Assembly (NCBI GenBank): GCA_031409335.1
Contig: JANNWY010000185.1
Location: 1-15,415, forward strand
Reading direction: 5' to 3'
Length of the DNA: 15,415 bases
DNA from: Chthoniobacteraceae bacterium
Lineage (GTDB): Bacteria; Verrucomicrobiota; Verrucomicrobiia; Chthoniobacterales; Chthoniobacteraceae
The position numbers and the translations under genes are program-made. The notes below the pieces were generated by a model. The model saw only the letters and a list, made by a program, of their open reading frames with translations. It did not search any database and had not been told where the DNA came from. Of this stretch, positions 1-15,276 are shown piece by piece (the first letter of the stretch is position 1; every line of letters begins with the position of its first letter).

Positions 1-952
1 GATGCTCGGCGATGGTGTTCACTGTGAAAGGCCGCGTCGGGTTCGTGGATGACGGAAGGACATTCAGTTCACCGCAGACGCGGATAATGTCCGGCGCGTG
101 ACCGCCGCCCGCGCCTTCGCTGTGGAAGGTGTGAATCGTCCGGCCTTTGAACGCAGCGATGGTGTCTTCGACGAAGCCCGATTCGTTCAGCGTGTCGGTA
201 TGAATCGCGACCTGCACATCAAGTTCATCCGCGACGCCGAGGCAGCAGTCGATCGCCGCAGGCGTGGTGCCCCAGTCTTCGTGGAGCTTGAGTCCGACGA
301 CTCCGGCGAGCACCTGTTCGCGCAGCGGCTCGGGCGTGGAGCAATTGCCTTTGCCGAGAAAGCCGAGGTTCATCGGGAATTCGTCCGCCGCTTCGAGCAT
401 CCGGTGAATGTTCCAAATGCCGGGCGTGCAGGTGGTGGCGTAAGTCCCGTGCGCCGGACCTGTGCCGCCGCCGATCATCGTCGTGACGCCACTCGCGAGC
501 GCATGCTCGATCTGCTGCGGGCAGATAAAATGGATGTGCGTATCAATGCCGCCCGCCGTGACGATGCAGCCTTCGCCCGCGATCACTTCCGTCGCCGCGC
601 CGATCGTCATGTTCACGCCGCGCTGAATCCCCGGATTCCCCGCGTGCCCGATGCCCACGATGCGGCCGTGCTTCACGCCGATATCCGCTTTGATGACACC
701 TTGGACCGCATCGAGAATCAGCGCGTTCGTGATGACGAGATCGAGCGACTCCGCATCGAGCGCCGTCGGCGATTGACCCATGCCATCGCGGATCACTTTG
801 CCGCCGCCAAATTTCACCTCATCGCCATACGCACCGGCCTCGGCGATGAGATCGCGCTCGACTTCAATGAACAGCTCCGTGTCCGCAAGCCGCACGCGAT
901 CACCCACGGTCGGCCCGAACATTTCGGCGTACTGCCGACGCGTCATTTTCAT
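1..952 (-). CDS. ureC: Urease alpha subunit (5' part; continues beyond the left window edge)
   Basis: Absent from the ORF track because there is no stop in the window. Manual translation from ATG 952 (ATGA overlap with the ureB stop) gives [28 protein letters not shown]...[14 protein letters not shown]...[12 protein letters not shown]...GLKLHEDWG...[11 protein letters not shown]...[15 protein letters not shown]...[10 protein letters not shown]. These include the Ni-ligand HxH, the carbamylated Lys and the catalytic His motifs of UreC. Confidence 0.98.
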
Positions 953-1257
953 AGCCTGCCGTTCACCTTTCCGTTCAGGCCAAACACTTCACGCAAGCCA
1001 GCAAGAGCGACTAGTTCCACTTCGCGCGTGTCTCCGGGTTCAAAGCGAACCGCTGTGCCCGCGGGAATGTTCAGCCGAAACCCGCGCGTGGCTTCGCGCT
1101 CAAAACGCAGCGCAGTGTTCGTCTCGTAGAAATGGTAATGGCTCCCGACTTGAATGGGTCGATCGCCGATATTCGCCACGGCGAGCACTTTGGTCTCAAG
1201 GCCCGTGTTGGCTTCGATGTCCGGTGCGTTTGCTGGGATGATTTCGCCGGGAATCAT
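949..1257 (-). CDS. ureB: Urease beta subunit
   Basis: MIPGEII...[19 protein letters not shown]...[18 protein letters not shown]. Start placed at ATG 1257 (canonical MIPGE); the ORF-track extension to 1278 lies in a repeat array. Confidence 0.97.
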
Positions 1258-1261
1258 AGGA

Positions 1262-1358
1262 AAATGACCAATGACCAATGACCAATGACCAATTCAAAAA
1301 CCAGCGCACTAAAACAGAATCCGTCTCTGGTCATTGTGTCATTGGTCATCGGTCATTT
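1262..1358. repeat. Inverted pair of heptamer tandem arrays, (AATGACC)4 ... (GGTCATT-like)4
   Basis: AATGACC at 1263, 1270, 1277 and 1284. Reverse-complement copies GGTCATT 1329, TGTCATT 1337, GGTCATC 1344 and GGTCATT 1351, after a ~35-nt spacer. The element fills nearly the whole ureA-ureB spacer. Confidence 0.93.
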
Positions 1359-1363
1359 CTTCC

Positions 1364-1666
1364 TCATCGGATCGGATTGTGAACCGTGACCAGTTTCGTC
1401 CCATCGGGAAAAGTCGCCTCGACTTGCACCTCGTGGATCATCTCCGCGACGCCTTCCATCACGTCGCTGGTTTTCAAAATGGTCGTTCCGAAGCTCATCA
1501 ACTCGGCAACGCGCCGGCCATCGCGCGCGCCTTCGAGGATTTCAAACGTGATGATCGCGATGGCTTCCGGGTAGTTGAGTTTCAAGCCGCGAGCCTGCCG
1601 ACGGCGGGCGAGATCTGCGGCCACGACGACCAGCAATTTTTCCTGCTCGCGCGGAGACAGATGCAT
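1364..1666 (-). CDS. ureA: Urease gamma subunit
   Basis: 100 aa, [12 protein letters not shown]...[11 protein letters not shown]...EGARDG...[31 protein letters not shown]. Confidence 0.98.
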
Positions 1667-1899: not shown

Positions 1900-2733
1900 C
1901 TATTTGGTGCGAGCAACGAGTTTGCGGAGCATTTCATCGCGCTCGCCGGTGGGGGCGCGATCGTGCGCGAGGAGGCTGAGGAGTTCGCGTTTGAGGTCGA
2001 AGAATTCGCGCGTGAGCTTGATCTCGGGCGGGCGCTCGACGCCGAAAGGCACGACGATTTCCCGGATGATGCGGCCTGGCCTGCCGGAGAATACGAGGAT
2101 GCGCGTGGAAAGATAGATGGCCTCCTCGACATCGTGCGTGACGAAGAGCGTGGTGATCTTTTCTTGGCGGCTGAGGAGCAGGAGCAGCTCCTGCATTTCC
2201 TCGCGGGTCTGCGCGTCGAGGGCGCCGAAGGGCTCGTCCATGAGCAGCACCTTTGGCTTTGCGGTGAGCGCACGCGCGATGGCGACACGTTGCTTCATAC
2301 CGCCGGAGAGTTCGCGCGGGTAGGCGTTGTAAAAGCTGTTGAGGCCCATCAGATCGAGCAGCGAATTCGCGCGTCCGATCTGGGTCATCACCTCGCTGGA
2401 GGTGCAGGAAAGATCCAGATTCGCGCCGAGACGGAACGCAAACTTCGTGTTCTCCTCGACCGTGAGCCATGGGAAGAGCGTGTAGTTTTGAAAAACCATC
2501 CCTCGCTCCGGACCCGGCCCGGTTACTCGCTGGCCATCGAGCCTGATCTCGCCGCCAGTCGCTTCGTCGAGCCCGGCGATCATGTAAAGAGTCGTGGATT
2601 TTCCGCAGCCGGACGGACCCACGAGGCTGACAAACTCCGCGTCGCCGATTTCGAACGAGGTCGGCAGCAACGCCTGGGTTGCGCCTTTCTTCGACGTGTA
2701 GGTTTTCTCCACCGCGCGGACTTCGAGCTTCAT
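1900..2733 (-). CDS. NitT/TauT-family ABC transporter ATP-binding subunit (probable guanidine importer)
   Basis: Start at ATG 2733 (ATGA overlap with the permease stop), 277 aa. Walker [11 protein letters not shown]-loop [10 protein letters not shown], signature LSGGMKQR, Walker [13 protein letters not shown]-loop VTHD. Confidence 0.93.
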
Positions 2734-3533
2734 CGCTTCGTCGTGTCGGCCCAGTGGAAAAGGCGCTGGTTCATTTTGCGAAATACGAAATCGAGCAGCA
2801 GTCCGACCGCGCCGAGGAGGATGAGATAGACGAAGATTTTCGGCGTCTGCACGAAGCGGTAAAACTTCAGCACGCGATAGCCCAGGCCTTCGTTGGCGGC
2901 GATGAGTTCCGCGACGACAAGGTACGTCCATGCCCAGCCATTGCATAGCCGGAGCGCATCGAAGATGCCGGGCCTGGCCGCCGGCCAGAGAACGCGTTGG
3001 ATCACTTCCCCGCGCCGCGCCCCTAGGGTGTAGCTGACTTGCAGCAACTCGTAAGACACGCGGCGCACTTCGTCGGCAACCATGAGCACGAGTTGGAAAA
3101 AGGTGCCGACGAAGATCAGCATGACCTTCGACAACTCGCCGAGGTCGAAGAGCAGCATGAGGATGGGAATCAGCGCAGGCACGGGGACGTAGCGGACAAA
3201 CTCCGTGAGCGGCTGCATGAAGCCTTCGACGAGCTTGAACGATCCGATCCAGATGCCGAGCGGCACGCCGAGCGCGGCGGAAAGCAGGAAGCCCGCGGTG
3301 ACCCGCAGGAAGCTGATCTTCAAATCGCTCCACAGCGTCTCCCCGCGCAGCAATTCGCCCGCGCTGTGCCACACCACTTCCGGCGGAGGCAGGTAAGCGG
3401 TTTCGACAAGCCCGCTGTGGCTCAACCACCACCACGCCGCCACCACGGAGCCGAAGCCCGCGATGGCAGAGCAGTAGTAGAGAGCCCGCGGCACATCCTG
3501 CCGCAGCGCCCAATAGCGGGCGGCTGCTTTCAT
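2730..3533 (-). CDS. NitT/TauT-family ABC transporter permease (probable guanidine importer)
   Basis: 267 aa with several hydrophobic segments, LPPP...SFLRV, EFVRYVPVPALIP, an EAA-like loop (SYTLGA) and WTYLVVAELIAANEGLGY, all typical of TauC/SsuC-type permeases. Confidence 0.93.
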   Translation of the reverse strand: MKAAARYWALRQDVPRALYYCSAIAGFGSVVAAWWWLSHSGLVETAYLPPPEVVWHSAGELLRGETLWSDLKISFLRVTAGFLLSAALGVPLGIWIGSFKLVEGFMQPLTEFVRYVPVPALIPILMLLFDLGELSKVMLIFVGTFFQLVLMVADEVRRVSYELLQVSYTLGARRGEVIQRVLWPAARPGIFDALRLCNGWAWTYLVVAELIAANEGLGYRVLKFYRFVQTPKIFVYLILLGAVGLLLDFVFRKMNQRLFHWADTTKR

Positions 3534-3534
3534 G

Positions 3535-4503
3535 TTACTTCTTCGAGGCTTCGACGAACGTCGCGTCGAGCGCGCCAGCGTAGTCGGGCACTTTCGTCAT
3601 CAGCCCAGTCTGGACGAGAAATTCGCTGATGACCTTTCCGCTTCCGTAAAGCGAGTGAACATCACCTTCGTCCTTCTTGAACGCCTTGAGGTTCGCCTTG
3701 AGGTCGAAGAACTTCGTGCCGGGCAGGAATGCTTTGTAGTCCTCTGGCTTCTGCTCGACGATTTTCGCCATGATCTTCACAGCCTCGTCCTCGTTCTTGT
3801 TGATGAAATCGACCACGTCGAACCACGCATCGACGACCTTCTGAATGTCCGCAGCGCGCTTTTCGACGACCTTCGTTTGAAAGACGAGCAGGTCGGGAAT
3901 CAGCCCCGGTACATCTTTCGAAGTGAAGAGCAGGTTGGCCTTGCCTTCCTTCATCACGTCGTTGAGCGATGGCTGCCAGATCACCGCGGCATCCAGTTTC
4001 CCCTGGCGGAAGGCTGCGGCGGCATCGGGCACCGTCATGTTTTTATAGACGATGTCCTTCTCGGTCATGCCATTCTTCGCCAGCGCTTGCAGCAGGAGGA
4101 AGTGATCCACCGTGCCTAGTTCCGTGGCGACCGTCTTGCCTTTCAGCGACTTGATCGTCTTAAACTCCTTCTTTGAGACGAAGCCATCGTTGCCAGCGGA
4201 GTTATCGTTGGCGAGGACGACTTTCAGTTTGATGCCTTCAGCGAGTGGCGGGATCGTATCGCTCCAGGTCTGGCAATTGGCATCAAGCTTGCCGGTGTTC
4301 AGCGCGGTGAGCGAGTCGGTGTAGATGGGAAACCAGATGAGTTTCACATCGACGCCGCGTTTCTTGAAGAAGCCTTTTTCCTTCGCGATCTCCCAGGCGG
4401 TCCAGCCGGGCCAGTCGGAATATCCGATCTTGATCGGTTCGGCAAAGGCCGGGACGGCGAGCACCGCGGCGAAGAGGGTGGTTAGAAATGTGCGGAGTTT
4501 CAT
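3535..4503 (-). CDS. NitT/TauT (NMT1/SsuA-like) ABC substrate-binding protein, probable guanidine-binding
   Basis: Signal peptide MKLRTFL...PAFA|EP, IGYSDWPGW, NDNSAGND, LKGKTVATELGTVDHFLL, PGLIPDLLV. Substrate is inferred from its position directly after the guanidine hydrolase. Confidence 0.88.
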   Translation of the reverse strand: MKLRTFLTTLFAAVLAVPAFAEPIKIGYSDWPGWTAWEIAKEKGFFKKRGVDVKLIWFPIYTDSLTALNTGKLDANCQTWSDTIPPLAEGIKLKVVLANDNSAGNDGFVSKKEFKTIKSLKGKTVATELGTVDHFLLLQALAKNGMTEKDIVYKNMTVPDAAAAFRQGKLDAAVIWQPSLNDVMKEGKANLLFTSKDVPGLIPDLLVFQTKVVEKRAADIQKVVDAWFDVVDFINKNEDEAVKIMAKIVEQKPEDYKAFLPGTKFFDLKANLKAFKKDEGDVHSLYGSGKVISEFLVQTGLMTKVPDYAGALDATFVEASKK

Positions 4504-4521: not shown

Positions 4522-6000
4522 TTACTTGGTTTTCTTTTTGCGTTTTCGTTTTTTGGTTGCGACGGGTTTGCGCTCTGGCCAGTAAGGCGGTGGAGGAAGG
4601 CGCGTCTCGGGCTTCTTTCCGAGCTTGCCTTCGTTCACGAGCGTGCCGAGCACATCCATGATGGCGCGGCAGCCAAGCAGGCCAGTGATGTCGCCGACGT
4701 CGTACTGCGGCGCGACCTCCACGACTTCCATACCGCACAGACCTTCGCGTGCGACGAGCCGGAGCAAGCGCAGCACTTCCCGCGGAAGGAAGCCGCCCGG
4801 CTCGGGCCAGCCAGTGCCGGGAACAAAGCCCGCGTCCAGCGAGTCCACATCGAAGCTCAGGAAGACGGCTTTCGCGCCGTTGCTCCAGGCGACATCGAGC
4901 GCGATCTCCGCGGCCTTATCCACACCCATCATCACGATGTCCTCGATGGTCAGCACCGTGCTGCCGCGCGCGGTGCCGCTCCGGACACCGGGGCGCGGTG
5001 CCTGCCAGCCGCCAATGCCTAGCTGCACGAGATTGATGGGCGGCGCGTTCGGGATATTCGTCGCGTGGAACCAGGGGCATGTATGCATCCGCTCATCCAT
5101 GTCGGTCTCCTGAGTATCGACATGGCGGTCAATGTGAATGATGCCGACCGGCCCATCCATGTACGGCGCGACGCCCCGGACATCCGGGTAGCCGATGGAA
5201 TGATCGCCGCCAAGCATGATCGGGAAAACGCCATTTGAGCGGACATGCGCGACCCCTTTCGAGATCTGGTCGAAGCCCTTCTCGATGTTCGCGATTGTGA
5301 AGATGTCGCCGACATCGCACATCTTCAGCGACTCACGGAGATCCACGCCGAGTTCGTAGTTGTAGGTGCCGTAGAGCGCGGAAATGCGGCGCAAGGCTTG
5401 CGGGCCAAAGCGCGTGCCGCTCCGGTAGGTCGTGCCGATGTCGAAGGGCACGCCGATGATCGCCGCGTCATATTGCGAGACCTTCTTGACGTCTTCGAGG
5501 TAGTGCGTCTTCGCAAAGGTATTGATGCCTGCAAAGTGCGGCAGCTCCCCGCGCGCAAACGTCGAGATGCTTCGGTCTTTAATCGAAGGCGCTGCCTCCA
5601 GCCCATATTCAAGGCAGCGATCCACTTCCTCCTTCCAGCCTTTGTGACCCAGCTCTGCCTCGCGATACTTCGCCCATGCGCCCTGGCGATGTGCCGGGTC
5701 AAAGACTTCTGGGTGCGGATGCCCCGGCGGAACATGGCCAGGCTTGCTGTAGTCCGTGTGCTCCACCGGTGCCCAAGGGTAGCCTTGGGGATGGGCAGGG
5801 TGCGGGTGGTGCGAGCTAGGCAGGTTGGGATATGGCTGCCCGTGCTCTGCGTGATGATGCACGCCGGGGATGAAAGCGTGTCCGGCAGCTTCGTGGTGAT
5901 CCTTGCCTTCGTGATGAGCGAGATCATGTTGCGCTGCCTTACTGGCCGAGCGGACGCGCCGCGCGGCATTTTTCTTTTTGTGTGAGTGGCCGAAGCCCAT
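4522..6000 (-). CDS. gdmH: Guanidine hydrolase (GdmH-like ureohydrolase, arginase/agmatinase family) with His-rich N-terminal extension and basic C-terminal tail
   Basis: Metal-ligand motifs GGDHS, DRHVD and SFDVDSLD. The segments GWKEEVDRCLEYGLEAAPSIKDRSISTFARGELPHFAGINTF, DTQETDMDERMHTCPWFHATN, LVQLGIGGWQ and GFVPGTGWPEPGG closely match my recollection of Synechocystis Sll1077/GdmH, including the Trp in GTGWPEPGG where agmatinases have GTGTP. Start placed at ATG 6000 after an A/C-rich leader (492 aa). Confidence 0.88.
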   Translation of the reverse strand: MGFGHSHKKKNAARRVRSASKAAQHDLAHHEGKDHHEAAGHAFIPGVHHHAEHGQPYPNLPSSHHPHPAHPQGYPWAPVEHTDYSKPGHVPPGHPHPEVFDPAHRQGAWAKYREAELGHKGWKEEVDRCLEYGLEAAPSIKDRSISTFARGELPHFAGINTFAKTHYLEDVKKVSQYDAAIIGVPFDIGTTYRSGTRFGPQALRRISALYGTYNYELGVDLRESLKMCDVGDIFTIANIEKGFDQISKGVAHVRSNGVFPIMLGGDHSIGYPDVRGVAPYMDGPVGIIHIDRHVDTQETDMDERMHTCPWFHATNIPNAPPINLVQLGIGGWQAPRPGVRSGTARGSTVLTIEDIVMMGVDKAAEIALDVAWSNGAKAVFLSFDVDSLDAGFVPGTGWPEPGGFLPREVLRLLRLVAREGLCGMEVVEVAPQYDVGDITGLLGCRAIMDVLGTLVNEGKLGKKPETRLPPPPYWPERKPVATKKRKRKKKTK

Positions 6001-6047: not shown

Positions 6048-6219
6048 GCGACGCAGACCTCAGTCGCAGCACTTGATTCCAATCTGCGTTCTGAAATCCG
6101 CGACCTAGAATCCCACCGGCGGTCCGCAGCAGATGTCGATCAGCGTCATCCGGAGAAAGAGAGCCCTGTCGTGAGCGAGTTGCTCGGAACGACTGAGGCG
6201 CTGGTTGGACATGCGTCGC
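6048..6219 (-). other. Candidate structured 5' leader (nested inverted repeats) upstream of gdmH
   Basis: Perfect complementary pairs GCGACGCA (6048-6055)/TGCGTCGC (6212-6219) and CCTCAGTCG (6058-6066)/CGACTGAGG (6190-6198) enclose smaller possible hairpins. Confidence 0.5.
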
Positions 6220-6224
6220 CCATT

Positions 6225-6240
6225 AGCAAAGCAGATGCCA
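6225..6240 (-). promoter_or_regulatory. Sigma54 (RpoN) -24/-12 promoter for gdmH-ABC-ure
   Basis: The minus strand reads TGGCATCTGCTTTGCT, an exact GG-N10-GC spacing close to the TGGCAC-N5-TTGC consensus. Predicted start site is near 6214. Confidence 0.8.
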
Positions 6241-6403: not shown

Positions 6404-7360
6404 TTACACCGTTAGATGTCTGCGGACGACCTCATCGGTTAGCGCTGACACCGGCCCCGCGATCACGACAGTCCCGCGATCCATGATCGCAAATGTATCA
6501 GCCAGTTCGCGGCAGAAATCGAGATACTGCTCGACGAGAAGGATGCTGATCTTCTCCTCACCCTTGAGTCGCTGAAGTGCGCTGCCAATTTCGTCGGCGA
6601 GCTTAAAGCCGGTGGTCTGCTCCTTGCGCAATGCCTCAATACAGTCGGCGAAGCGATTCAACATGGCAGGATGCTGCTCGACGCCGTCCTTGAGCAGCAC
6701 CACCACGGTTTCGCTGGCTTCGTCGAAGAGCGGGGACTTTGGCGCGTCTTCGTTCCCGCGCAGATTTTTCAGCGATTGGTTGATCTCCGCGAGAAGGCCC
6801 GGCTCGTTGTGGTGCCCACCCCGACGGAGCAACCGAATCGCGTCGCCAATTTGGTCGATAATGTTGGGCTGAATGCCTTCGGTCGGCTCATCGAGAATCA
6901 GCACCTTGGGTTCGGTGAGCAGAGCGCGACCGATGGCGAGTTGCTGCTGCTGACCGCCGGAAAGCATGCCGCCTTTGCGGGGAAGAAACTCCTTGAGAAT
7001 CGGGAAGAGGCTGAAAACGCGATCAAGGCTGCCAGTGAGCTTCCTGCCGAGAGCGATGGCTCCGATCTTGAGGTTTTCCTCGACGGTGAGTTGCGGAAAA
7101 ATGTCGCGACCTTGCGGCACATAGCCGATGCCAGCGGCGGCGCGTGCTTCGCTGGAAAGGCTGGTGATGTCTTTCCCCGCGAGCGTGATTTTTCCTGCGC
7201 TGGGTTTCAGCACGCCAGTAATGGCGCGGAGCGTCGATGTCTTACCCACACCATTGCGACCCATGAGACAGAAACATTGGTTGCCGGGGACATCGAATTC
7301 GACGCCGCGAAGAATGCGGCTGCCACCGATGGAAAGTTCAAGGGCTTGGACGTTGAGCAC
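6404..7360 (-). CDS. urtE: Urea ABC transporter ATP-binding subunit UrtE with ~87-aa internal insertion
   Basis: GRNGVGKT, YVPQGRDIFPQLTVEENL, LSGGQQQQLAIGRAL, ILDEPTEGIQPNII, ILLVEQYLDF and C-terminal VRRHLTV. 318 aa versus about 230 aa for typical UrtE. GTG start. Confidence 0.93.
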   Translation of the reverse strand: MLNVQALELSIGGSRILRGVEFDVPGNQCFCLMGRNGVGKTSTLRAITGVLKPSAGKITLAGKDITSLSSEARAAAGIGYVPQGRDIFPQLTVEENLKIGAIALGRKLTGSLDRVFSLFPILKEFLPRKGGMLSGGQQQQLAIGRALLTEPKVLILDEPTEGIQPNIIDQIGDAIRLLRRGGHHNEPGLLAEINQSLKNLRGNEDAPKSPLFDEASETVVVLLKDGVEQHPAMLNRFADCIEALRKEQTTGFKLADEIGSALQRLKGEEKISILLVEQYLDFCRELADTFAIMDRGTVVIAGPVSALTDEVVRRHLTV

Positions 7361-7381
7361 GGGACAATTTGCGGGATGGTC

Positions 7382-8161
7382 TTAGTGGCTGCGCTTCTTG
7401 CGACCGAGATACACGTCAAGCACACGGTCATCGTTTTGCACTTCATCGACGCTGCCTTCGCAGAGCACCGAACCTTGGTGAAGGACAGTCACTTTCCGGC
7501 CTGCCGCGATCTGGCGGACGAAGACCATGTCGTGCTCGATGACCACAATCGTGTGTTTGCCGACGAGCGAGAGGAGCAGTTCGCCGGTCTTATGAGTCTC
7601 GGTGTCGGTCATCCCGGCTGCGGGTTCATCGACGAGGAGAAGCTTTGCATTCTGCGCGAGGAGCATGCCGATCTCGAGCCATTGCTTTTGCCCGTGGGCG
7701 AGCGAACCGGCTTTCGCATCGCGCTGGGATCCGAGGTTGATCGTCTTCAGGATTTCATCCATGCGATCCCGCTCGGTGCTATTGGGCTTGTGGAAGAGGC
7801 TCGCCCACACGCTGCGGCTGCCTTCCATCGAGAGCAGGAGATTTTCCCAAACGCTATGATCGGCATACACGGTCGGCGTCTGAAACTTCCTCCCGATCCC
7901 GAGCCGGTAAATCTGATATTCGTTTAGCTTCGGAATGCTGACGGTGCCTTCAAACTCGATCGTCCCCGAGTCCGGTTTGGTCCGGCCAGTGATGAGATCG
8001 AGAAAGCTGGTCTTACCAGCGCCATTGGGTCCGATGACCGTGCGCAGTTCACCGGCATCCAGATAGAAGTTGAGATCGTTGATCGCCTTGAAGCCTGAAA
8101 AACTCTTGTTCACACCCTCAGCAGCAAGGAGGAACTGCTTTTGAATGGATTCGATCTTCAC
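7382..8161 (-). CDS. urtD: Urea ABC transporter ATP-binding subunit UrtD
   Basis: [58 protein letters not shown] overlap with the urtC stop. Confidence 0.95.
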
Positions 8162-9279
8162 GACTTGGCGGCCTCTGTTTCATGTGGCGCAGTTGACTCG
8201 TCAATCACGGTGTTCGGTTTCCCAAACAATCCAAGGAGCTTGCCGAGCAGTCCGACGATTCCCTTCGGCAGAAACAATACAATCACGACAAACATTCCCC
8301 CCAGAATGATCAGCCACAGATCGGGGTAAGCCTGCGTCGCCCAACTCTTCATCCAATTCACGCCGATGGCTCCGATGATGGGGCCAATGAGGGTGCCACG
8401 TCCCCCGACTGCAACCCACACCACCGCTTCCAAGCTCTTCGTGGTCTCCATTTCACCCGGATTGATGATGCCGACCTGCGGGACAAAGAGCGCGCCGCTG
8501 ATGCTCGCAATGAGGCCGCTAACAACGAATACGAACAACTTGTAGTTCGCAGCGGCGTATCCTGAGAAAAGCACGCGCACTTCACTATCCCGGATGGCGC
8601 GCTGCACGAGGCCAAACTTCGTGCGCGTGAGCCAGCGGCAGCCCACGAACACCGCCACGATCGCGACTGCCGTGGCGATGAAGAGGGCGCGCTTGGTTTC
8701 CGGCGAACGGATGTCCGCACCGAGAATGAAGCGAAAGTCGGTGAAGCCGTTGTTGCCACCCATCGTCATGTCGTTGCGGAAAAACATCAGCGCCGCCCCG
8801 TAGGTTAGCGCCTGGGTGAGGATCGAGAAATAGACTCCTTTGATCCGGCTGCGAAAGGCCAGGTATCCGAAGACACAAGCCAGCAATCCGGGCACGAGCA
8901 GGACCATCGCGCCTGCAAAGAGCGGAGAATAGAATGGCTTCCAGAAACTCGGCAAAAAGGTGTGCCCGAGGAAGACCATGAAATCCGGCAGGTCGCTCTT
9001 GTACTGCCCGAGCTTGCCAATCATGAGCATGAGATACATGCCCATCATGTAGCCGCCGAGACTAAAGAAGAGTGCCTGGCCGAGACTGAGTAATCCGGTG
9101 TAGCCCCAGAGTAAATCCACCGAAATGGCCAGGATGGCATAACAAAGATACTTTCCCCACAGGTTGATGCTGTAATCAGAGATCATGCCCATCGCATTGA
9201 GCGCCGGGACTACTACGATCAGAAGCAGCGCGGAGATCGCGATCAGCAGCAATTCGATCTTGGAAAAGGTGCGCGTCAT
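8158..9279 (-). CDS. urtC: Urea ABC transporter permease UrtC
   Basis: [76 protein letters not shown]. Confidence 0.95.
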
Positions 9280-9285
9280 ACGAAA

Positions 9286-11097
9286 TTATCCTTCGAGACT
9301 TCGGCTCTTGGTGACGAATAGACCTGCGGGCCGCCATTGCAGGAAAGCAATGATTGCGACGAGGACGAGGATTTTACCAAGCACGGGGTTGCCAAGATAC
9401 TGCTGGAGGCTTTGATCGGTGACGCCGATTGCCAGGGCACTCAAGACCGTTCCAGCAATGCTGCCGACTCCGCCGACGACGACGGTCATGAAGCAATCGA
9501 CGATGTAGCTTTGGCCGAGGGAAGGGCCGACGTTTCCGATTTGGGAAAGAAATGCGCCGGCAAGTCCCGCGAGCCCGCTGCCGAGTCCGAATGTGAGCAT
9601 GTTCACGCGCTCGGTGGGAACACCCATGCATGCGGCCATCTGCCGGTTTTGCATGACGGCGCGGATGAGCAGCCCAAGCGATGTGCGATTGAGGATGACC
9701 CAGACGAGGGCGACAACGGCAATCGTGAAGCCGATGACAAAGACCCGGTTCCAACCAAAGATGATGTCATTGATGGTCCAGTTTCCCGAGAGCCATGCCG
9801 GGGAATACACTTGGACGTTATTGGCGCCGAAGACCAAGCGGAAGAGTTGCTGCAGGACGAGTGAGACACCCCAGGTCGCCAGCAGGCTTTCGAGCGGCCG
9901 ACGGTAAAGGAACTGGATGACGGTTCTCTCAAGCGCAATGCCGACTGCCGCGGCACTCAGAAAGGCAACCGGGAGGGCGACCAGGAAGTAGGCGTCGAGC
10001 TTCGCGCCGCTGAGGTGCATCCCGGGAATAGGCAGATGAAAGCCGAAAGGACTGATGTCCAGCCCTTCACCAAAAATCGCCTGCACGACGAAGGTAGCAT
10101 AAGCGCCGACGACCATGATTTCGCCGTGCGCCATATTGATGACACCCATAAGGCCAAATGTAATGGCCAACCCGAGCGCCACGAGCAGGAGGATGCTGCC
10201 AAGGCTCAGGCCGCGGAAGCAGGTGCCGAGGGTATTGACCGTCACCCGGTGGGAATCGATGGAAAGAATAGCGTCGCGGGCGGCGGCTGCTATCGCAGGA
10301 TTTTCAGGCGGTGCGCTGGCTTCGGCGAGAGCGGCTTTGACGAAGTCGTAGCTGGCGAGCGAGGCGAGGGACTTTAACTCGACGAGTGCCTTTAGCCTGG
10401 TATCGGGAGATTCGTCTTTGAGCTGAATCAGCGCGATGGCTTCGCGAAAAGCGCGATTTGTGGCGTGGTCGGTTTCGACGGACTGGCGCGAGAGGAGCGC
10501 CGGAAGTTTGTCGGGATCTTGAGCCATGCCGAGGGTGCCGATCGCGAGGATGCGTTTGGCCGGATTGGGGTTGGCGAGGGCTTGCAGATCGAGCACGCCC
10601 TTCATCACTCCACGCAGATTTGAATCGTGCGCGGCAGCATCAAGATCGGAGGCGAGGATGCGGACGGGCTGGCCTGTCGCGTCCTTCAATGGTGAGGCGT
10701 CTTCGACGAGTATTGCTGTCTGTTTGCCATTGGCGTCTTTTTCTTCGGCGAGGAGGACGGGGATGACTTTATCTTCGGGAGTCTTGAAAAGGTAGATGGC
10801 ATCTTCCTTCCATGCCGCCATCAGCGGCGCGATGTCGGCGGAAGCATTGCCTGAGAGCGAAGAGATCAGCGCGGCCTTCTTTGCGTCGTCTTCTTCGAGG
10901 ATGGCCGCGACGATGGTTTGACGCGGGGTGTTCGCAGAGAATGCGGACAAAGTGGTGAGGAGAAGGAGAAAGACGGCAAGTAGTCTTCCTCTCCGAACTG
11001 CTCTTGAGGTTCCTTCTTCTACTGCTGTGGTGATGCCTCGCAGATTGGGTGAAAGATTAAGAGGAAGAGGAAGGTTTATAGCGGCGGAGTTGTTCAA
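9286..11097 (-). CDS. urtB: Urea ABC transporter permease UrtB with N-terminal periplasmic helical domain (start uncertain)
   Basis: GLSLGSILLLVALGLAITFGLMGVINMAHGE, LYRRPLESLLATWGVSL, SQIGNVGPSLGQSYIVDCFMTVVVGGVG, and a signal-like LLAVFLLLLTTLSAFSA. No in-frame ATG/GTG precedes the signal peptide. TTG 11097 was chosen because the ORF-track start at 11193 lies upstream of a terminator hairpin. Confidence 0.88.
   Translation of the reverse strand: MNNSAAINLPLPLNLSPNLRGITTAVEEGTSRAVRRGRLLAVFLLLLTTLSAFSANTPRQTIVAAILEEDDAKKAALISSLSGNASADIAPLMAAWKEDAIYLFKTPEDKVIPVLLAEEKDANGKQTAILVEDASPLKDATGQPVRILASDLDAAAHDSNLRGVMKGVLDLQALANPNPAKRILAIGTLGMAQDPDKLPALLSRQSVETDHATNRAFREAIALIQLKDESPDTRLKALVELKSLASLASYDFVKAALAEASAPPENPAIAAAARDAILSIDSHRVTVNTLGTCFRGLSLGSILLLVALGLAITFGLMGVINMAHGEIMVVGAYATFVVQAIFGEGLDISPFGFHLPIPGMHLSGAKLDAYFLVALPVAFLSAAAVGIALERTVIQFLYRRPLESLLATWGVSLVLQQLFRLVFGANNVQVYSPAWLSGNWTINDIIFGWNRVFVIGFTIAVVALVWVILNRTSLGLLIRAVMQNRQMAACMGVPTERVNMLTFGLGSGLAGLAGAFLSQIGNVGPSLGQSYIVDCFMTVVVGGVGSIAGTVLSALAIGVTDQSLQQYLGNPVLGKILVLVAIIAFLQWRPAGLFVTKSRSLEG
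10984..11074. repeat. Degenerate inverted hexamer-repeat element in the 5' end of urtB
   Basis: Right arm AAGATT-AAGAGG-AAGAGG-AAGG (11053-11074). Left arm TCTTCCTCT (10984-10992) is the exact reverse complement of AGAGGAAGA (11060-11068), with further CTCTT/CTTCTT units. Confidence 0.5.
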
Positions 11098-11134
11098 TGC
11101 TTTGATGACGTGTGGTGATGACCGAGCTTCCTTG

Positions 11135-11175
11135 AAAAAAAGAGGGGCGGGCCCCAAACCAAGGACCCGCCCCTC
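11135..11175 (-). terminator. Intrinsic terminator between urtA and urtB
   Basis: Minus strand GAGGGGCGGG-TCCTTGGTTTGGGG-CCCGCCCCTC followed by TTTTTTT: a perfect 10-bp GC-rich stem plus U7. Confidence 0.85.
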
Positions 11176-11225
11176 GCTACCCCATATAATCAAAGCAATT
11201 TGCCAGACGGGGCGGAGCTGGCTTT

Positions 11226-12503
11226 CTATCTGGAAGCGCTCTTGGGCTTGAAGGTGCCTTTCAGGAAGGGCTCGCCGAACACGTCCTTGTATTCCTTGAG
11301 GATTTTGAACTGCCCGTCGGCCTTTGTCTCTCCGATGAAAACGTTCTTCGTCAGGTGATGATTCTTCTGAGTCGTCACCTTGCCGCCTGGGCCATCAAAA
11401 CTGATGCCGGATTGCAGCGCGGCAACTACCTTGTCCACATCGAAGCTTTTGGCCTTCTCGACCGCTGCTTTCCAGAGATACACGCCGTTGTAACTGAGGA
11501 CCATGGGCGAACAGGTGACGCGCCCCTCCTTTTTTACCCCTTCCGCGGTGGTGGTCTTCAGCCACGCATTCCACGCGGCGAGGAACTTGGTATTCGCGGG
11601 CGATTTGATGCTTTGGAAATAGGTCCAGCAGCCGAGCTGCCCAACGAGTTGCTTGGCTGGCAGGCCGCGGAATTCGTCCTCGCTGATCGAGAAACTTACG
11701 ACCGGCGCGGTCTCGGCGGAGAGGCCGGAAGCGGCGTATTCCTTAAAGAATGGAACGTTTGTATCGCCGTTCAAAGTGGAGACGATGCAAGCCTTCCCGC
11801 CCGCGGCGAACTGCTTGATTTCAGCGACGATCTGCTGGTAGTCGGTGTGGCTGAATGGCGTGTATTTTCCCGCGGCGATGATCTTGCCGGTTTCATCCTT
11901 CTTGAAGCCGCCGCCGATGTTTTCGAGCGGGACGCCTTTGCTTAGAAGGTATTCGAGAAGGACCAGATTGGTTGTCTGCGGATAGACGTAGTCGGTGCCG
12001 AGGAGGTAGAATTTTTTCTTCCCCTGAGCGAGGAGATAGTCGATCGCTGGTGTGGCTTGCTGACCGACGGCTTCGGCAGTGTAGAAGATGTTCGGGGACA
12101 TTTCCTCGCCTTCATATTGAACTGGGTAGAAGAGGAGACCTTTCTTTTCCTCAAAGACGGGAAGAACGGACTTGCGGGAAACGCTGGTCCAGCAGCCGAA
12201 AGTCACGGCGACCTTGTCCTGGCCGAGGAGCTGTTTCGCTTTTTCGGCGAAGAGCGGCCAGTCGGAAGCGCCATCGACGACGACGGGCTCGATTTTCTTG
12301 CCCATCACGCCACCTTTGGCGTTGATCTCGTCGAAGGTGAAGAGGAGGACATCCCGGAGCGAGGTCTCAGAGATGGCCATGGTGCCACTGAGCGAATGGA
12401 GGACGCCGACTTTGACGGAATCATCCGCCGCACGTGCGGAAAAAGAGGTTAGAGCGACGACGCCGGTGAGTGCGGCGAGGCAAAAGGAACGGATTGGAGT
12501 CAT
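11226..12503 (-). CDS. urtA: Urea ABC transporter substrate-binding protein UrtA
   Basis: Signal peptide, then [79 protein letters not shown]. Start placed at ATG 12503 after an A/C-rich leader. Confidence 0.96.
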
Positions 12504-12637
12504 TGGTGTGTTGGTGTTGGTGATTGCTTGGAACCGAGGCGGATGGTCCAAAAAGAGGAAGGAAGATTCGCGGCGGGTGATTGGGAAGGGATCGCCGCGA
12601 GCCGACTTGCAGACTGACTGAAAAGAACCGTGATTTT

Positions 12638-12714: not shown

Positions 12715-13659
12715 TTAGAAGGCGAGCACGATGCCCGCCGAGAAGACGTGCTCATGCTCGTCGAAGTCGCGAACTGCTCCGCCGCGCGCCGCGGTATTGA
12801 AGTCCGAAGTGCCGTCGCCGAGGTAGTAGTAGGAGTAGCCTGCGGAGGCGGTCCACTTGCCGTAGCATTCTGGGATGAAGGCGAGGGCGTAGCTGGCGCT
12901 CACACCCGCGGTGAAGTAGCCAAACGCTTCGTCGTCAATATTGCCCGTCGTGGTGTTGAGCGATCCGTAGAAGTCGTTTGAACCAAAACCCGCGGCAATG
13001 GGAACGGATACCGTGAGTCCGGTTGTGCCGATTGGGAAGCTCGGGGTGATGCCGATTTCGTAATAAACGCCTTCGTCAGCACCGGTGCCGGCTTTGTTTT
13101 CCAGCTCAAACAGAACCTGCACTTTTGGCGCGAGGTTGAAGCCAATGAGGTCGGTGGTGTCGTAGCCGAGTGCGAGGTTCAGGCCTTGGAAGGTCGAAAA
13201 ACCGTCGTTCGGGCTGAGGAACGCGTAGTAGCTCGGCGTGAAGACGAAGTTCTTCGCGAAGGTGAAGCTGACACCTGCGGTGAAGTCGAACTCATACCAG
13301 CTCCGCGTGGAGCTGCTGCCCGCACCGCTGGCGATGCCGGCGTCGGTCTTGCGGGAGTGGAAGCTGTTCCAGATTCCGAGATTGAGGCTGACTTTGTTAA
13401 GGAAGCCCTCGCCCTCGTAGAGTTTGAAGTAGAGGTCGGCGTATGGCTGGGTGATTGCGCCCTGATTCTCGAAGATCACGCCGCGGGAAATGTACTGCGA
13501 GACGACATTGATGCCGAGGTCGCCGGTGATGCAGGATTCTTTGCATTTCTCCACAACTTCCTTCATCTCCTTCGACGGAGTGCCCGCGAAGCTGAGGGCC
13601 GGAATGCTGAGGATTGCCGCGGTCAGGATTCCGACTTTGGCGAGGTTCTGTTTGATCAT
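12715..13659 (-). CDS. Outer-membrane beta-barrel protein, paralog 1 (putative porin, possibly TorF/TIGR02001-like)
   Basis: Signal peptide ending SFA|G, alternating aromatic beta-strand pattern, VSQYISRG...QPY, WYEFDFTAG, and C-terminal GIVLAF with terminal Phe. The family assignment is tentative. Confidence 0.8.
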   Translation of the reverse strand: MIKQNLAKVGILTAAILSIPALSFAGTPSKEMKEVVEKCKESCITGDLGINVVSQYISRGVIFENQGAITQPYADLYFKLYEGEGFLNKVSLNLGIWNSFHSRKTDAGIASGAGSSSTRSWYEFDFTAGVSFTFAKNFVFTPSYYAFLSPNDGFSTFQGLNLALGYDTTDLIGFNLAPKVQVLFELENKAGTGADEGVYYEIGITPSFPIGTTGLTVSVPIAAGFGSNDFYGSLNTTTGNIDDEAFGYFTAGVSASYALAFIPECYGKWTASAGYSYYYLGDGTSDFNTAARGGAVRDFDEHEHVFSAGIVLAF

Positions 13660-13982: not shown

Positions 13983-14897
13983 TTAGAACGCAACGCGCAG
14001 GCCGCCGCCGAAGACGAATTCGTTTTCGTCGCGGTCGCGAACAGCGGGAACGTTGGCATCATCGGTGCCGTCACCGAGATTGTAGTAGGTCGCGTTGGCG
14101 TGGAGCGACCAGTCGCCGAGGCACTCGGGGATGCAGACGATCTTGTAGTCCGCATTCACGCCAATGGAGAAGAAGCCGTAGGTTTCGTCACCCGCATAAT
14201 AATCGCTCGATCCAAACCCGGCCTTGATCGGGAAACTGACATACACCGGTCCAGCCTGGAGGCCGGGAGCGATGCCGATTTCGTAGTAAACGCCTTCGTC
14301 GCCGCCGTTGCCGGAGGTGTTCTCGACGTCGAACTGGACGAGGGCATACGGGTGAAGCGCGAACGCACCGAGGAGATCGGTGTCGTCGAACGCGAGGCGC
14401 AGGCCGAGATCGTGGGCGGTCTCGAACGCGTCGTTCGGGCTCATGTAGGCGCGGTAGTAGGGATTGACGGTCAGGTTCTTGTTGAACACGAAGCTGAGCC
14501 CGGCTGTGAAGTCGGACTCGAACCAGGCATTCGTCGTGGAACCGCCGCCGCCGAAGACGCCGCCGGAGCCAGTCTTGCGGCTGTGGAAGCTCTGCCAGAA
14601 GCCGAGGTCGAAGCTGACGCTGGTCAGTGCGCCCTCGCCTTGGAAGAGGCGGAAGCGGAGGTCCATATAGGGCTGCAGGATCGCGCCTTGATTCTCTCTC
14701 GAGATGCCGCGCGAGATATACATGGAGACGACGTCGATGCCGATGTCGCCGCTGATGCAGGACTCTTTGCACTTCTCGATGACTTTTGCGTCCTTGTAGT
14801 CTTTCCCAGCCGATGCAGTTCCGGCGAGGCTGATGGCGGGGATCGCGAGGATCGCCGTCGAGAGAACGCCCAACTTGGCAATGAATTGATTGCTCAT
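13983..14897 (-). CDS. Outer-membrane beta-barrel protein, paralog 2 (putative porin)
   Basis: Start placed at ATG 14897 (MSNQFIAKLGVL..., signal peptide ISLA|G). Colinear with paralog 1 (EKCKESCI.GD.G, YISRG, ENQGAI.QPY, SFHSRKT, DEGVYYEIGI.P, AGFGS.D, IPEC.G.W). Ends GLRVAF. Confidence 0.82.
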   Translation of the reverse strand: MSNQFIAKLGVLSTAILAIPAISLAGTASAGKDYKDAKVIEKCKESCISGDIGIDVVSMYISRGISRENQGAILQPYMDLRFRLFQGEGALTSVSFDLGFWQSFHSRKTGSGGVFGGGGSTTNAWFESDFTAGLSFVFNKNLTVNPYYRAYMSPNDAFETAHDLGLRLAFDDTDLLGAFALHPYALVQFDVENTSGNGGDEGVYYEIGIAPGLQAGPVYVSFPIKAGFGSSDYYAGDETYGFFSIGVNADYKIVCIPECLGDWSLHANATYYNLGDGTDDANVPAVRDRDENEFVFGGGLRVAF

Positions 14898-14920
14898 GGT
14901 GTAGTTATTTTCTGGTTTCT

Positions 14921-14940
14921 TGGTTTGGTTTGGTTTGGTT
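14921..14940. repeat. (TGGTT)4 short tandem repeat in the leader of porin paralog 2
   Basis: tggtttggtttggtttggtt, which reads (AACCA)4 on the coding strand. Confidence 0.8.
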
Positions 14941-15276
14941 TTTTCGCCGCCCAGACGGGCAGCGACGTGGGGATTAGCAGCGGTGGAAAATGGGCGCAAA
15001 CACTTTTTTTGCATGAAAACTTGGCCCGCCCGCCCCAACGCGCGCCGCAAAGTGAGGACAAATCGCGCCACACACTTTGTTCATCTTGGGTAAAGATCAC
15101 CATGGAACGCGTCGGATTTCTGCCTACATCCGAGGGCTGCGCCGTCTGTCATTTCGCGGAAAATCTTGCGCTTCGGTTGCGGCTGAACATCGCGTTCACC
15201 ACGATCTCGACGCTCAGAACGAGGGATGCCCTTGGGCTTCCGGCGCGGATGGAACTCGCCGGTCGCCGGGGATGCC

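Follow-up and report, generated by a model that had tools for sequence, protein, structure and literature searches.

The predicted guanidine hydrolase locus

The stretch of DNA analysed here (the window) comprises positions 1-15,415 of contig JANNWY010000185.1 of a Chthoniobacteraceae bacterium (GCA_031409335.1; genome G000, completeness 97.98%). Its central feature is gdmH, a gene on the minus strand for a GdmH-type enzyme, predicted to be a guanidine hydrolase. The open reading frame (ORF; 6000-4522) encodes 492 amino acids and falls into a His/Pro-rich N-terminal arm (residues 1-104; 5689..6000), a ureohydrolase core (4615..5688) and a C-terminal tail (4522..4614). Upstream lie a leader ORF of 35 codons (6105..6212) and, about 13 nucleotides (nt) before its start, a sigma-54-type promoter motif, GG-N10-GC (6225..6240). 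According to a family scan of the window ORFs, the genes urtABCDE for an ATP-binding cassette (ABC) importer of urea (6404..12551) are located further upstream. Downstream of gdmH follow a second ABC importer (1900..4503), which consists of an SsuA-family binding protein, a permease and an ATPase and is predicted to be a guanidine importer of the GimABC type, and the urease genes ureA, ureB and ureC (2..1666), with ureC cut at the contig end. All of these features are encoded on the minus strand. The remainder of the urease set (the end of ureC, ureE, ureF, ureG and ureD) is found on contig C98 of the same genome.

Comparison with known structures and protein families identifies the ORF as a GdmH-type hydrolase. 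The core scored 519 bits against the guanidinase of Nitrospira inopinata (9FEK) and 517 bits against GdmH of Synechocystis sp. PCC 6803 (Sll1077; 7ESR/7OI1), the next structure reaching 153, and 9FEK and 7ESR were also the top Foldseek matches of the predicted structure. In the family scan, the protein stayed below every agmatinase and arginase cut-off, and PF00491 was the only Pfam domain found on the whole protein. The six metal ligands (H267, D291, H293, D295, D384 and D386) and the active-site W398, equivalent to Trp305 of Synechocystis, are all retained, with H182, D207, H209, D211, D299, D301 and W313 of 9FEK as reference residues (Supplementary Table 9, PMC11410670). Nickel dependence and specificity for free guanidine are predicted from homology and from the importer and urease neighbours. 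Among the genomes searched, GdmH was not found in 400 others of the phylum.

The Synechocystis operon resembles the window in containing an ABC importer and in its nitrogen-linked promoter (NtcA in Synechocystis, a sigma-54 motif in the window). It differs in a guanidine-I riboswitch where the window has the leader ORF, and in the genes ghaA/ghaB, which are absent from the window operon and from genome G000. The window enzyme, in turn, carries about 95 extra N-terminal residues. The N. inopinata guanidinase shares with it the lack of a nickel chaperone in the genome and the possession of an N-terminal extension; unlike here, this extension has 14 residues and is structural, control is by a riboswitch, and an APC permease takes the place of the ABC importer (PMC11410670).

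The arm was delimited by translation, alignment and AlphaFold modelling, and by the ratio of the proportions of nonsynonymous and synonymous differences (pN/pS). The original prediction, made from the letters of the sequence, had counted 21 His in residues 1-104, and translation confirmed this number together with all His motifs quoted there. The arm also holds 15 Pro and no Cys, versus 9 His in the remaining 388 residues, and is arranged as a basic head (MGFGHSH..RRV.S), His clusters at residues 25-50 and a Pro/His segment at 56-102. The prediction had further put about 25 residues before the conserved GW in the cyanobacterial enzyme. This was borne out by about 26 residues in Synechocystis GdmH, compared with GWKEEVD at residue 121 here; in 7ESR the corresponding GW has chain position 29, that is native residue 27 under a 2-residue numbering offset inferred from Trp305/Trp313 in PMC11410670. 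At the genome His frequency of 2.0%, 21 His in 104 residues has a binomial p of ~2e-15. Among 4455 genes of the genome called by a crude script of our own, a single 104-residue window exceeds the arm in His density; with 26 His, it belongs to another metal-handling gene, that of a LarC-type nickel insertion protein (C83:52445-53305). As in storage tracts, high His density is combined with a terminal, largely unfolded segment.

The arm is almost certainly translated, because the armed relatives have a common MGFGHSH start, purifying selection acts on the segment and most of its His (17 of 21) are conserved. All armed relatives begin with MG[F/L]GHSH, and no ATG occurs between M1 and M227. At locus L108, where gdmH directly follows urtE, AAGGAG stands 9 nt before the ATG and a stop codon lies 5 codons upstream. 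A longer ORF from the GTG at 6072 was rejected as the start, since homologues begin at the MGFGHSH Met and the upstream part is not conserved. The arm is conserved and under purifying selection: in nine intact genes its mean pN/pS is 0.22 (0.195, 0.23 and 0.23 in successive thirds) versus 0.10 for the core, given as uncorrected proportions with pS near saturation. The 17 His are present in at least 20 of 22 aligned arms, which are not independent of each other, and so are the non-His residues R14, R15, V16, S18, Q24, L27, E31, W76, F100 and D101. Arm length ranges from 91 to 120 residues and the His count from 15 to 21; 15-residue insertions and one 13-residue deletion, with three His lost, are tolerated. 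A Tat (twin-arginine translocation) signal in the RRVRS head was rejected on direct inspection, no hydrophobic region being found behind it. All armed GdmH proteins also share the C-terminal tail, an LPPPPY motif followed by a Lys/Arg run and the stop (pN/pS 0.29), which occurs in the armed clade only, and both protein ends are basic.

In the AlphaFold model of the full-length protein, the predicted local distance difference test score (pLDDT) is mostly below 50 for residues 1-66 and 60-89 for residues 71-110. The arm modelled alone has no fold (predicted template modelling score, pTM, 0.24). The monomer model deviates from 9FEK by a root mean square deviation of 15 Å, so the placement of the arm is unreliable.

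Apart from the window, the whole arm is present in sixteen other 90% clusters (P0002-P0015, P0017 and P0018) among the best 120 of 4500 matches. It also occurs on gdmH of 6 of 150 family genomes and in four loci titled Verrucomicrobiia/-ae or Verrucomicrobia (L015-L018). In two of the family genomes (G014 and G100; L109 and L110) gdmH is frameshifted in the assembly, probably through sequencing errors. A search with the arm only gave 18 full-length and 13 short proteins, with fusion to GdmH in 17 of the former and, as far as the sequence reaches, in all of the latter. The exception, P0122 (G012; L248:1686-2753), joins the complete arm in frame to an ABC ATPase; an internal deletion also affects ureA-ureC in the same region, and the fusion is therefore likely due to decay or misassembly. 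With this single case so read, the arm was rejected as a mobile domain. It had no match in Pfam or NCBIfam, and the ESM Atlas gave no usable match and hence no evidence either way. A literature search, which left most subscription papers outside its coverage, found no paper on a His-rich GdmH extension. The armed enzyme is apparently an undescribed GdmH variant confined to one verrucomicrobial clade.

Nickel chaperones and the role of the arm

GdmH, like metformin hydrolase, depends on GhaA/GhaB or HypA/HypB, which are thought to confer selectivity (PMC12704784, PMC12186494, PMC11399263, PMC10927577, PMC12623156). Comammox genomes are without nickel chaperones, and recombinant N. inopinata guanidinase contained 0.42 Ni per subunit (PMC11410670). 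The original prediction regarded the arm as a built-in nickel store replacing HypA/HypB, and its statement that neither gene occurs in the window agreed with the family scan of 14 ORFs. A dependence on copies elsewhere in the genome, considered as an objection at the time, found nothing to rest on in G000: genome-wide, HypA had 0 matches, no HypB was above cut-off (the best match was UreG, the others CobW and a CobW-like GTPase) and no NiFe hydrogenase was found. UreE, UreF, UreG and UreD are present, together with two weak HupE/UreJ matches and an RcnA-like NicO-family protein that has a His-rich major facilitator superfamily neighbour (C171:6710-9169). At L003:1387-2601, a 404-residue CobW-like GTPase is encoded beside a glycine-cleavage-H-like gene.

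Both hypA and hypB are missing from 6 of 11 armed genomes (G000, G087, G100, G104, G552 and G554), of which G552 is a single 5.9 Mb contig. The other five have both genes, and in the three of them examined for context (G014, G085 and G098) these lie within hydrogenase operons. HypA is rare in the family overall, with matches above cut-off in 18 of 151 genomes. A UreG-like match was found in 9 of 10 armed relatives.

An anticorrelation between His-rich extensions and neighbouring hypA/hypB, as the prediction implied, was examined in 86 loci (the window, L015-L018, L020-L094 and L105-L110, with the duplicates L005, L007-L014 and L019 dropped), 9 of which have less than 1.5 kb of downstream sequence. 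Three kinds of N-terminus were distinguished after the data had been inspected: the long arm, a short His leader (MxFYxxHAPxHRxH type, 22-27 residues, 2-5 His) and a His-poor start. In these classes, hypA is a neighbour of gdmH in 0 of 11, 0 of 43 and 30 of 32 loci, respectively. N-terminal His and neighbouring hypA thus exclude each other in this sample (0 of 54 loci with a long or short His leader). The tree places all armed proteins in a single clade (support 1.0) and the short-leader loci in another (0.94), and the hypA-linked His-poor type appears in three branches, namely cyanobacteria, Planctomycetota and one Armatimonadota locus. This clade structure reduces the 86 loci to about five independent points, and the armed proteins, being one clade, represent a single evolutionary event. 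GdmH of L077, titled Sphingobacterium, nests in the cyanobacterial branch with hypA/B and is likely mislabelled or from a mixed bin.

Six of 11 plasmid-collection records were examined, and none has hypA/B within 6 kb; in one of the collection's records (L233), GdmH starts with three His. In two alphaproteobacterial loci without hypA/B, a separate gene for a His-rich protein of no known family directly follows gdmH (L234:7214-7729 and L235:7142-8303, the latter then followed by HupE/UreJ). This protein is a parallel solution: like the arm, it is a His-rich element tied to a hypAB-less gdmH, and unlike the arm it is a separate gene product with its own C-terminal domain and has no copy in G000. 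Homology between the two was rejected, as no similarity was found. Right after an acidobacterial gdmH, L023:11251-13137 (+) encodes a 628-residue protein without an NCBIfam match, a possible nickel-insertion candidate; by eye, its first half presumably resembles a CbiX-type chelatase.

The reading that we favour, on which we consider the case about evenly poised, is that the arm serves the active site as an in-cis, tethered Ni2+ buffer and perhaps also acts as a strap. It would bind several Ni2+ ions and act as a nickel buffer, not as a full substitute for HypA/HypB. The distal part (about residues 1-65, with 12 His and predicted to be disordered without metal) would capture Ni2+. The proximal Pro/His part (about 66-105) would pack on the hexamer beside the GdmH N-terminal loop, like the short N. 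inopinata extension, and would keep the stored metal close to the tunnel of the active site. With six arms on each hexamer, the local Ni2+ would rise and loading would proceed by exchange. UreG and UreE from the co-regulated urease genes would be the only candidates for an energy-driven loading step, with UreG as the only candidate GTPase partner. The arm seems to be an expanded version of the short MxF[YF]xxH His leader that is seen on other chaperone-less GdmH proteins. His-rich HypB termini bind 4-9 Ni plus other metals (9 Ni with 24 His in Bradyrhizobium japonicum, 4 Ni with 17 His in Rhizobium leguminosarum), and known His-rich tracts mainly store nickel (PMC7055735). Like the arm, the tracts of these HypB proteins, UreE of Klebsiella aerogenes, SlyD, Hpn and LarC-type proteins are terminal, with 17-24 His, and are expected to bind several Ni2+. 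They differ in being located on chaperones or free proteins, whereas the arm is part of the nickel enzyme itself, is rich in Pro and aromatic residues, has fixed His positions and is free of Cys.

A number of observations weigh against the buffer reading. Many non-His residues keep strictly fixed positions, which would not be expected of a low-complexity metal sponge and is in keeping with a role in structure or docking. His clusters also bind Zn and Cu (PMC7055735), so the arm alone cannot give selectivity. The long arm is not necessary, because chaperone-less GdmH proteins exist that do not have it: 16 of 43 short-leader genomes are without any HypA, two of them being single chromosomes (G573 and G586); the actinobacterial loci L236 and L237, which also break a strict rule, have neither N-terminal His nor hypA/B nearby; and in N. 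inopinata, which grows on guanidine, no chaperone was found and His14 is the sole His among the listed contacts of the extension (PMC11410670). In addition, the anticorrelation with hypA is not statistically testable for the long arm owing to its single origin, and the locus sample, the best 80 of 557 matches, missed Bacillota and Chloroflexota contexts.

Among the other explanations, a purely structural strap of the hexamer seems unlikely. The N. inopinata extension packs on the neighbouring subunit and stabilises the hexamer (PMC11410670), the higher pLDDT of residues 71-110 is reached only when the core is present, many non-His residues of the arm are invariant, and the clade-specific C-terminal tail co-occurs with it. 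The modelled order is nevertheless weak evidence, since the N-terminal part of the monomer model is not where 9FEK has it; moreover, neither model gives a confident fold for residues 1-66, insertions and a His-removing deletion are tolerated, and 17 conserved His are far above the need of a strap. It is distinctly improbable that the arm is a complete built-in chaperone which lets GdmH load itself and replaces GhaA/GhaB. The ordered His positions could make defined transfer sites, and the parts of the replacement claim that stood up point in the same direction: the arm is translated and conserved, hypA is adjacent in none of the armed loci, and both chaperone genes are missing from six armed genomes. 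Residues 1-104, however, contain no HypA MHE or CxxC motif, no Cys, and no P-loop or GTPase; the armed proteins all fall in a single clade; GdmH proteins that have neither chaperone nor arm are common, as the short-leader genomes illustrate; and the His tail of K. aerogenes UreE is dispensable for delivery (PMC7055735). Replacement of HypA/HypB is plausible and partly supported, in a weaker form than first stated, and the claim that the long arm makes them dispensable is not supported.

We consider it very unlikely that the arm is mainly a docking or localisation module, directed to UreE/UreG, the importer or, via the basic head and C-terminal tail, polyanions, with metal binding secondary. 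The invariant RRVxS head, the Lys-rich tail and the co-located urease maturation genes fit this idea, as does the proposal that the N-terminal loop of MfmB binds HypAB (PMC10927577), but G104 (86% complete) has no full UreG-like match. An untranslated or neutral extension, as would result from a true start further downstream, is hardly credible. The codon score of the arm is lower than that of the core (-0.05 versus 0.25 per codon), as is its GC content at third codon positions (0.64 versus 0.80), GTG codons 47 and 79 are possible starts, and the database protein P0016 was called from a later start. Against this stand the low pN/pS over the whole arm, including residues 1-30 (0.195), the invariant MGFGHSH start and the Shine-Dalgarno sequence before it in L108.

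The leader open reading frame and its promoter

The leader was found by aligning the DNA upstream of the armed genes, where an ORF of 35-37 codons is present in 10 of 11 loci. In the window it ends in FLRMTLIDICCGPP followed by 3 residues. The C-terminus has the general form F-x-R-[LM]-T-[LM]-x-D-[IV]-C-C-G-P-P plus 2-5 residues, with CCGPP invariant in 22 aligned leaders, and in 10 of 10 armed-locus leaders an ATG or GTG stands exactly 25 codons before the Asp. Over the last 14 codons, pN/pS is 0.15 in frame versus 1.9 and 3.7 in the other frames, as determined from 10 loci found through gdmH and not through the peptide. A structured RNA is disfavoured by the variation at third codon positions, where the majority share is 0.69 versus 0.94 and 0.96. 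The sigma-54 motif occupies this position in all 11 loci (the 10 leader loci and L248), with 0.002 expected by shuffling. Its copy in the window is the only GG-N10-GC site of this kind on the minus strand, and rpoN is present in the genome.

Within the family, the leader occurs in 7 of 151 genomes, in six before gdmH and in G012 before the arm-ATPase fusion; it was also detected in at least 2 of the 301 genomes from the phylum to which G558 belongs. A pattern scan of metagenomes revealed at least 121 loci with a leader. An ATG at -25 codons, a position outside the search pattern, was present in 59 of 112 metagenome leaders with enough flank. Among the 122 matches listed, the next gene, classified by motif with families confirmed on L125 and L016, is a UAAP1/CgdA-type deiminase in 71, a creatininase-family gene in 13, an armed gdmH in 6, a carboxylase in 2, a binding protein in 1 and another gene in 24, with 5 sequences too short. 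By eye, further cgdA, allophanate-hydrolase-like and GAF-ANTAR genes are among these 24. Most of the leaders thus stand immediately in front of genes of the guanidine/urea carboxylase pathway. At L023:18600-19900 (+) and in L172, two tandem leader copies directly precede a GAF-ANTAR gene (Pfam) near urease genes. Genes for creatininase-family, glutamine-synthetase-like and Rieske oxygenase proteins accompany armed gdmH or directly follow the leader (L016, L017, L106, L107 and L110; L133, L145, L162 and L163), possibly as parts of a creatinine or methylguanidine pathway.

No guanidine riboswitch was detected with Rfam models in the window, in 9 armed loci (E up to 5) or in G000, and none of any kind in the 20 leader loci tested out of the at least 121; as a control, guanidine-I was found in 6 of 7 cyanobacterial loci. 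In 10 non-cyanobacterial gdmH loci, neither an Rfam riboswitch nor the leader was seen before gdmH. The GGAM-1 to -6 motifs were ruled out by lineage and gene context (PMC7736828), and an arrest peptide of the RAPP/RGPP type was rejected, the C-terminal motif being C-C-G-P-P and not R-A/G-P-P. The leader belongs to no NCBIfam or Pfam family and has no match in Rfam. No description was found in the papers searched, including the available parts of PMC7736828 and PMC12992588, and CCGPP does not occur in the available text of the latter or in 9 of its 10 supplements. The peptide is apparently undescribed.

The leader very probably regulates in cis by its translation and is probably a ribosome-arrest sensor. 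The nearest model is SpeFL (10.1101/604074). With SpeFL, TnaC and the RAPP/RGPP peptides it has in common a short ORF of fixed length with a conserved C-terminus, a position directly before catabolic genes, C-rich downstream sequence and an xGPP end; it differs from them in CCGPP followed by about 3 residues and in the link to guanidine and urea genes. Within 50 nt behind the Pro-Pro codons, C outnumbers G in 95 of 114 leaders, as for a Rho site, compared with 50 of 112 upstream. Pairing of the ribosome-binding site with the leader end was above the shuffled control in 13 of 16 gdmH, 32 of 54 cgdA and 3 of 11 creatininase loci, a weak and mixed result, and no terminator was found on the minus strand of the window.

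Nitrogen limitation would activate the operon through the sigma-54 promoter, with ligand control probably added by the leader peptide through ribosome stalling. That guanidine is the signal is conceivable, although we would place it slightly below an even chance. Still somewhat more tentatively, we propose that the nascent RxTxxD[IV]CCGPP would stall the ribosome with guanidine and turn on gdmH or the genes for carboxyguanidine deiminase and guanidine carboxylase, in Verrucomicrobia and Acidobacteria. The boldest version of this proposal adds that the operon would have lost GhaA/GhaB owing to a self-loading arm, which taken alone is distinctly improbable. Several leader loci have no evident guanidine link (L121, L122, L137, L190 and L201; also L256), which speaks against a pure guanidine sensor. 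Urea, methylated guanidine, general nitrogen status and cysteine supply (compare polycysteine leaders) are rival signals.

Flanking genes and implications

The genes around gdmH recur in related loci. The downstream ABC importer is present in those armed loci long enough to show it, urtABCDE is also located upstream in L016, L017, L018, L106, L107 and L108, and urease genes flank 5 of 12 mapped armed loci. UrtE of the window (6404-7360 (-)) has 318 residues and matches a 230-position model in two stretches, leaving an insertion of about 85 residues that is seemingly without counterpart in relatives. Before urtA, two tandem genes (12715-13659 and 13983-15071 (-)) encode secreted beta-barrel-like proteins that are 53% identical and have no Pfam or NCBIfam match; with a homologue at the equivalent place in L106 and L107, they may be a urea or guanidine porin. 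An Rfam match to 5_ureB_sRNA at 502-793 (+), antisense to ureC, is probably conserved urease coding sequence.

How GdmH is loaded with nickel without GhaA/GhaB was stated to be unclear in the comammox study (PMC11410670), and chaperone-less loci are common, with 54 of 86 in our sample. The armed enzyme offers the cleanest test of this, as storage, structure and delivery can be separated by deletions within a single protein. A self-loading arm, if true, would answer how chaperone-less guanidinases get nickel, and a self-sufficient GdmH would be useful for guanidine removal, for example in ethylene-producing strains. The leader is the greater surprise and more important than the arm, as it marks guanidine-related operons in poorly studied phyla. 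To our knowledge, only a few metabolite-sensing arrest peptides are known, such as TnaC and SpeFL, and guanidine sensing is so far known only via riboswitches. If it is a true guanidine sensor, the leader would be the peptide counterpart of the four guanidine riboswitch classes.

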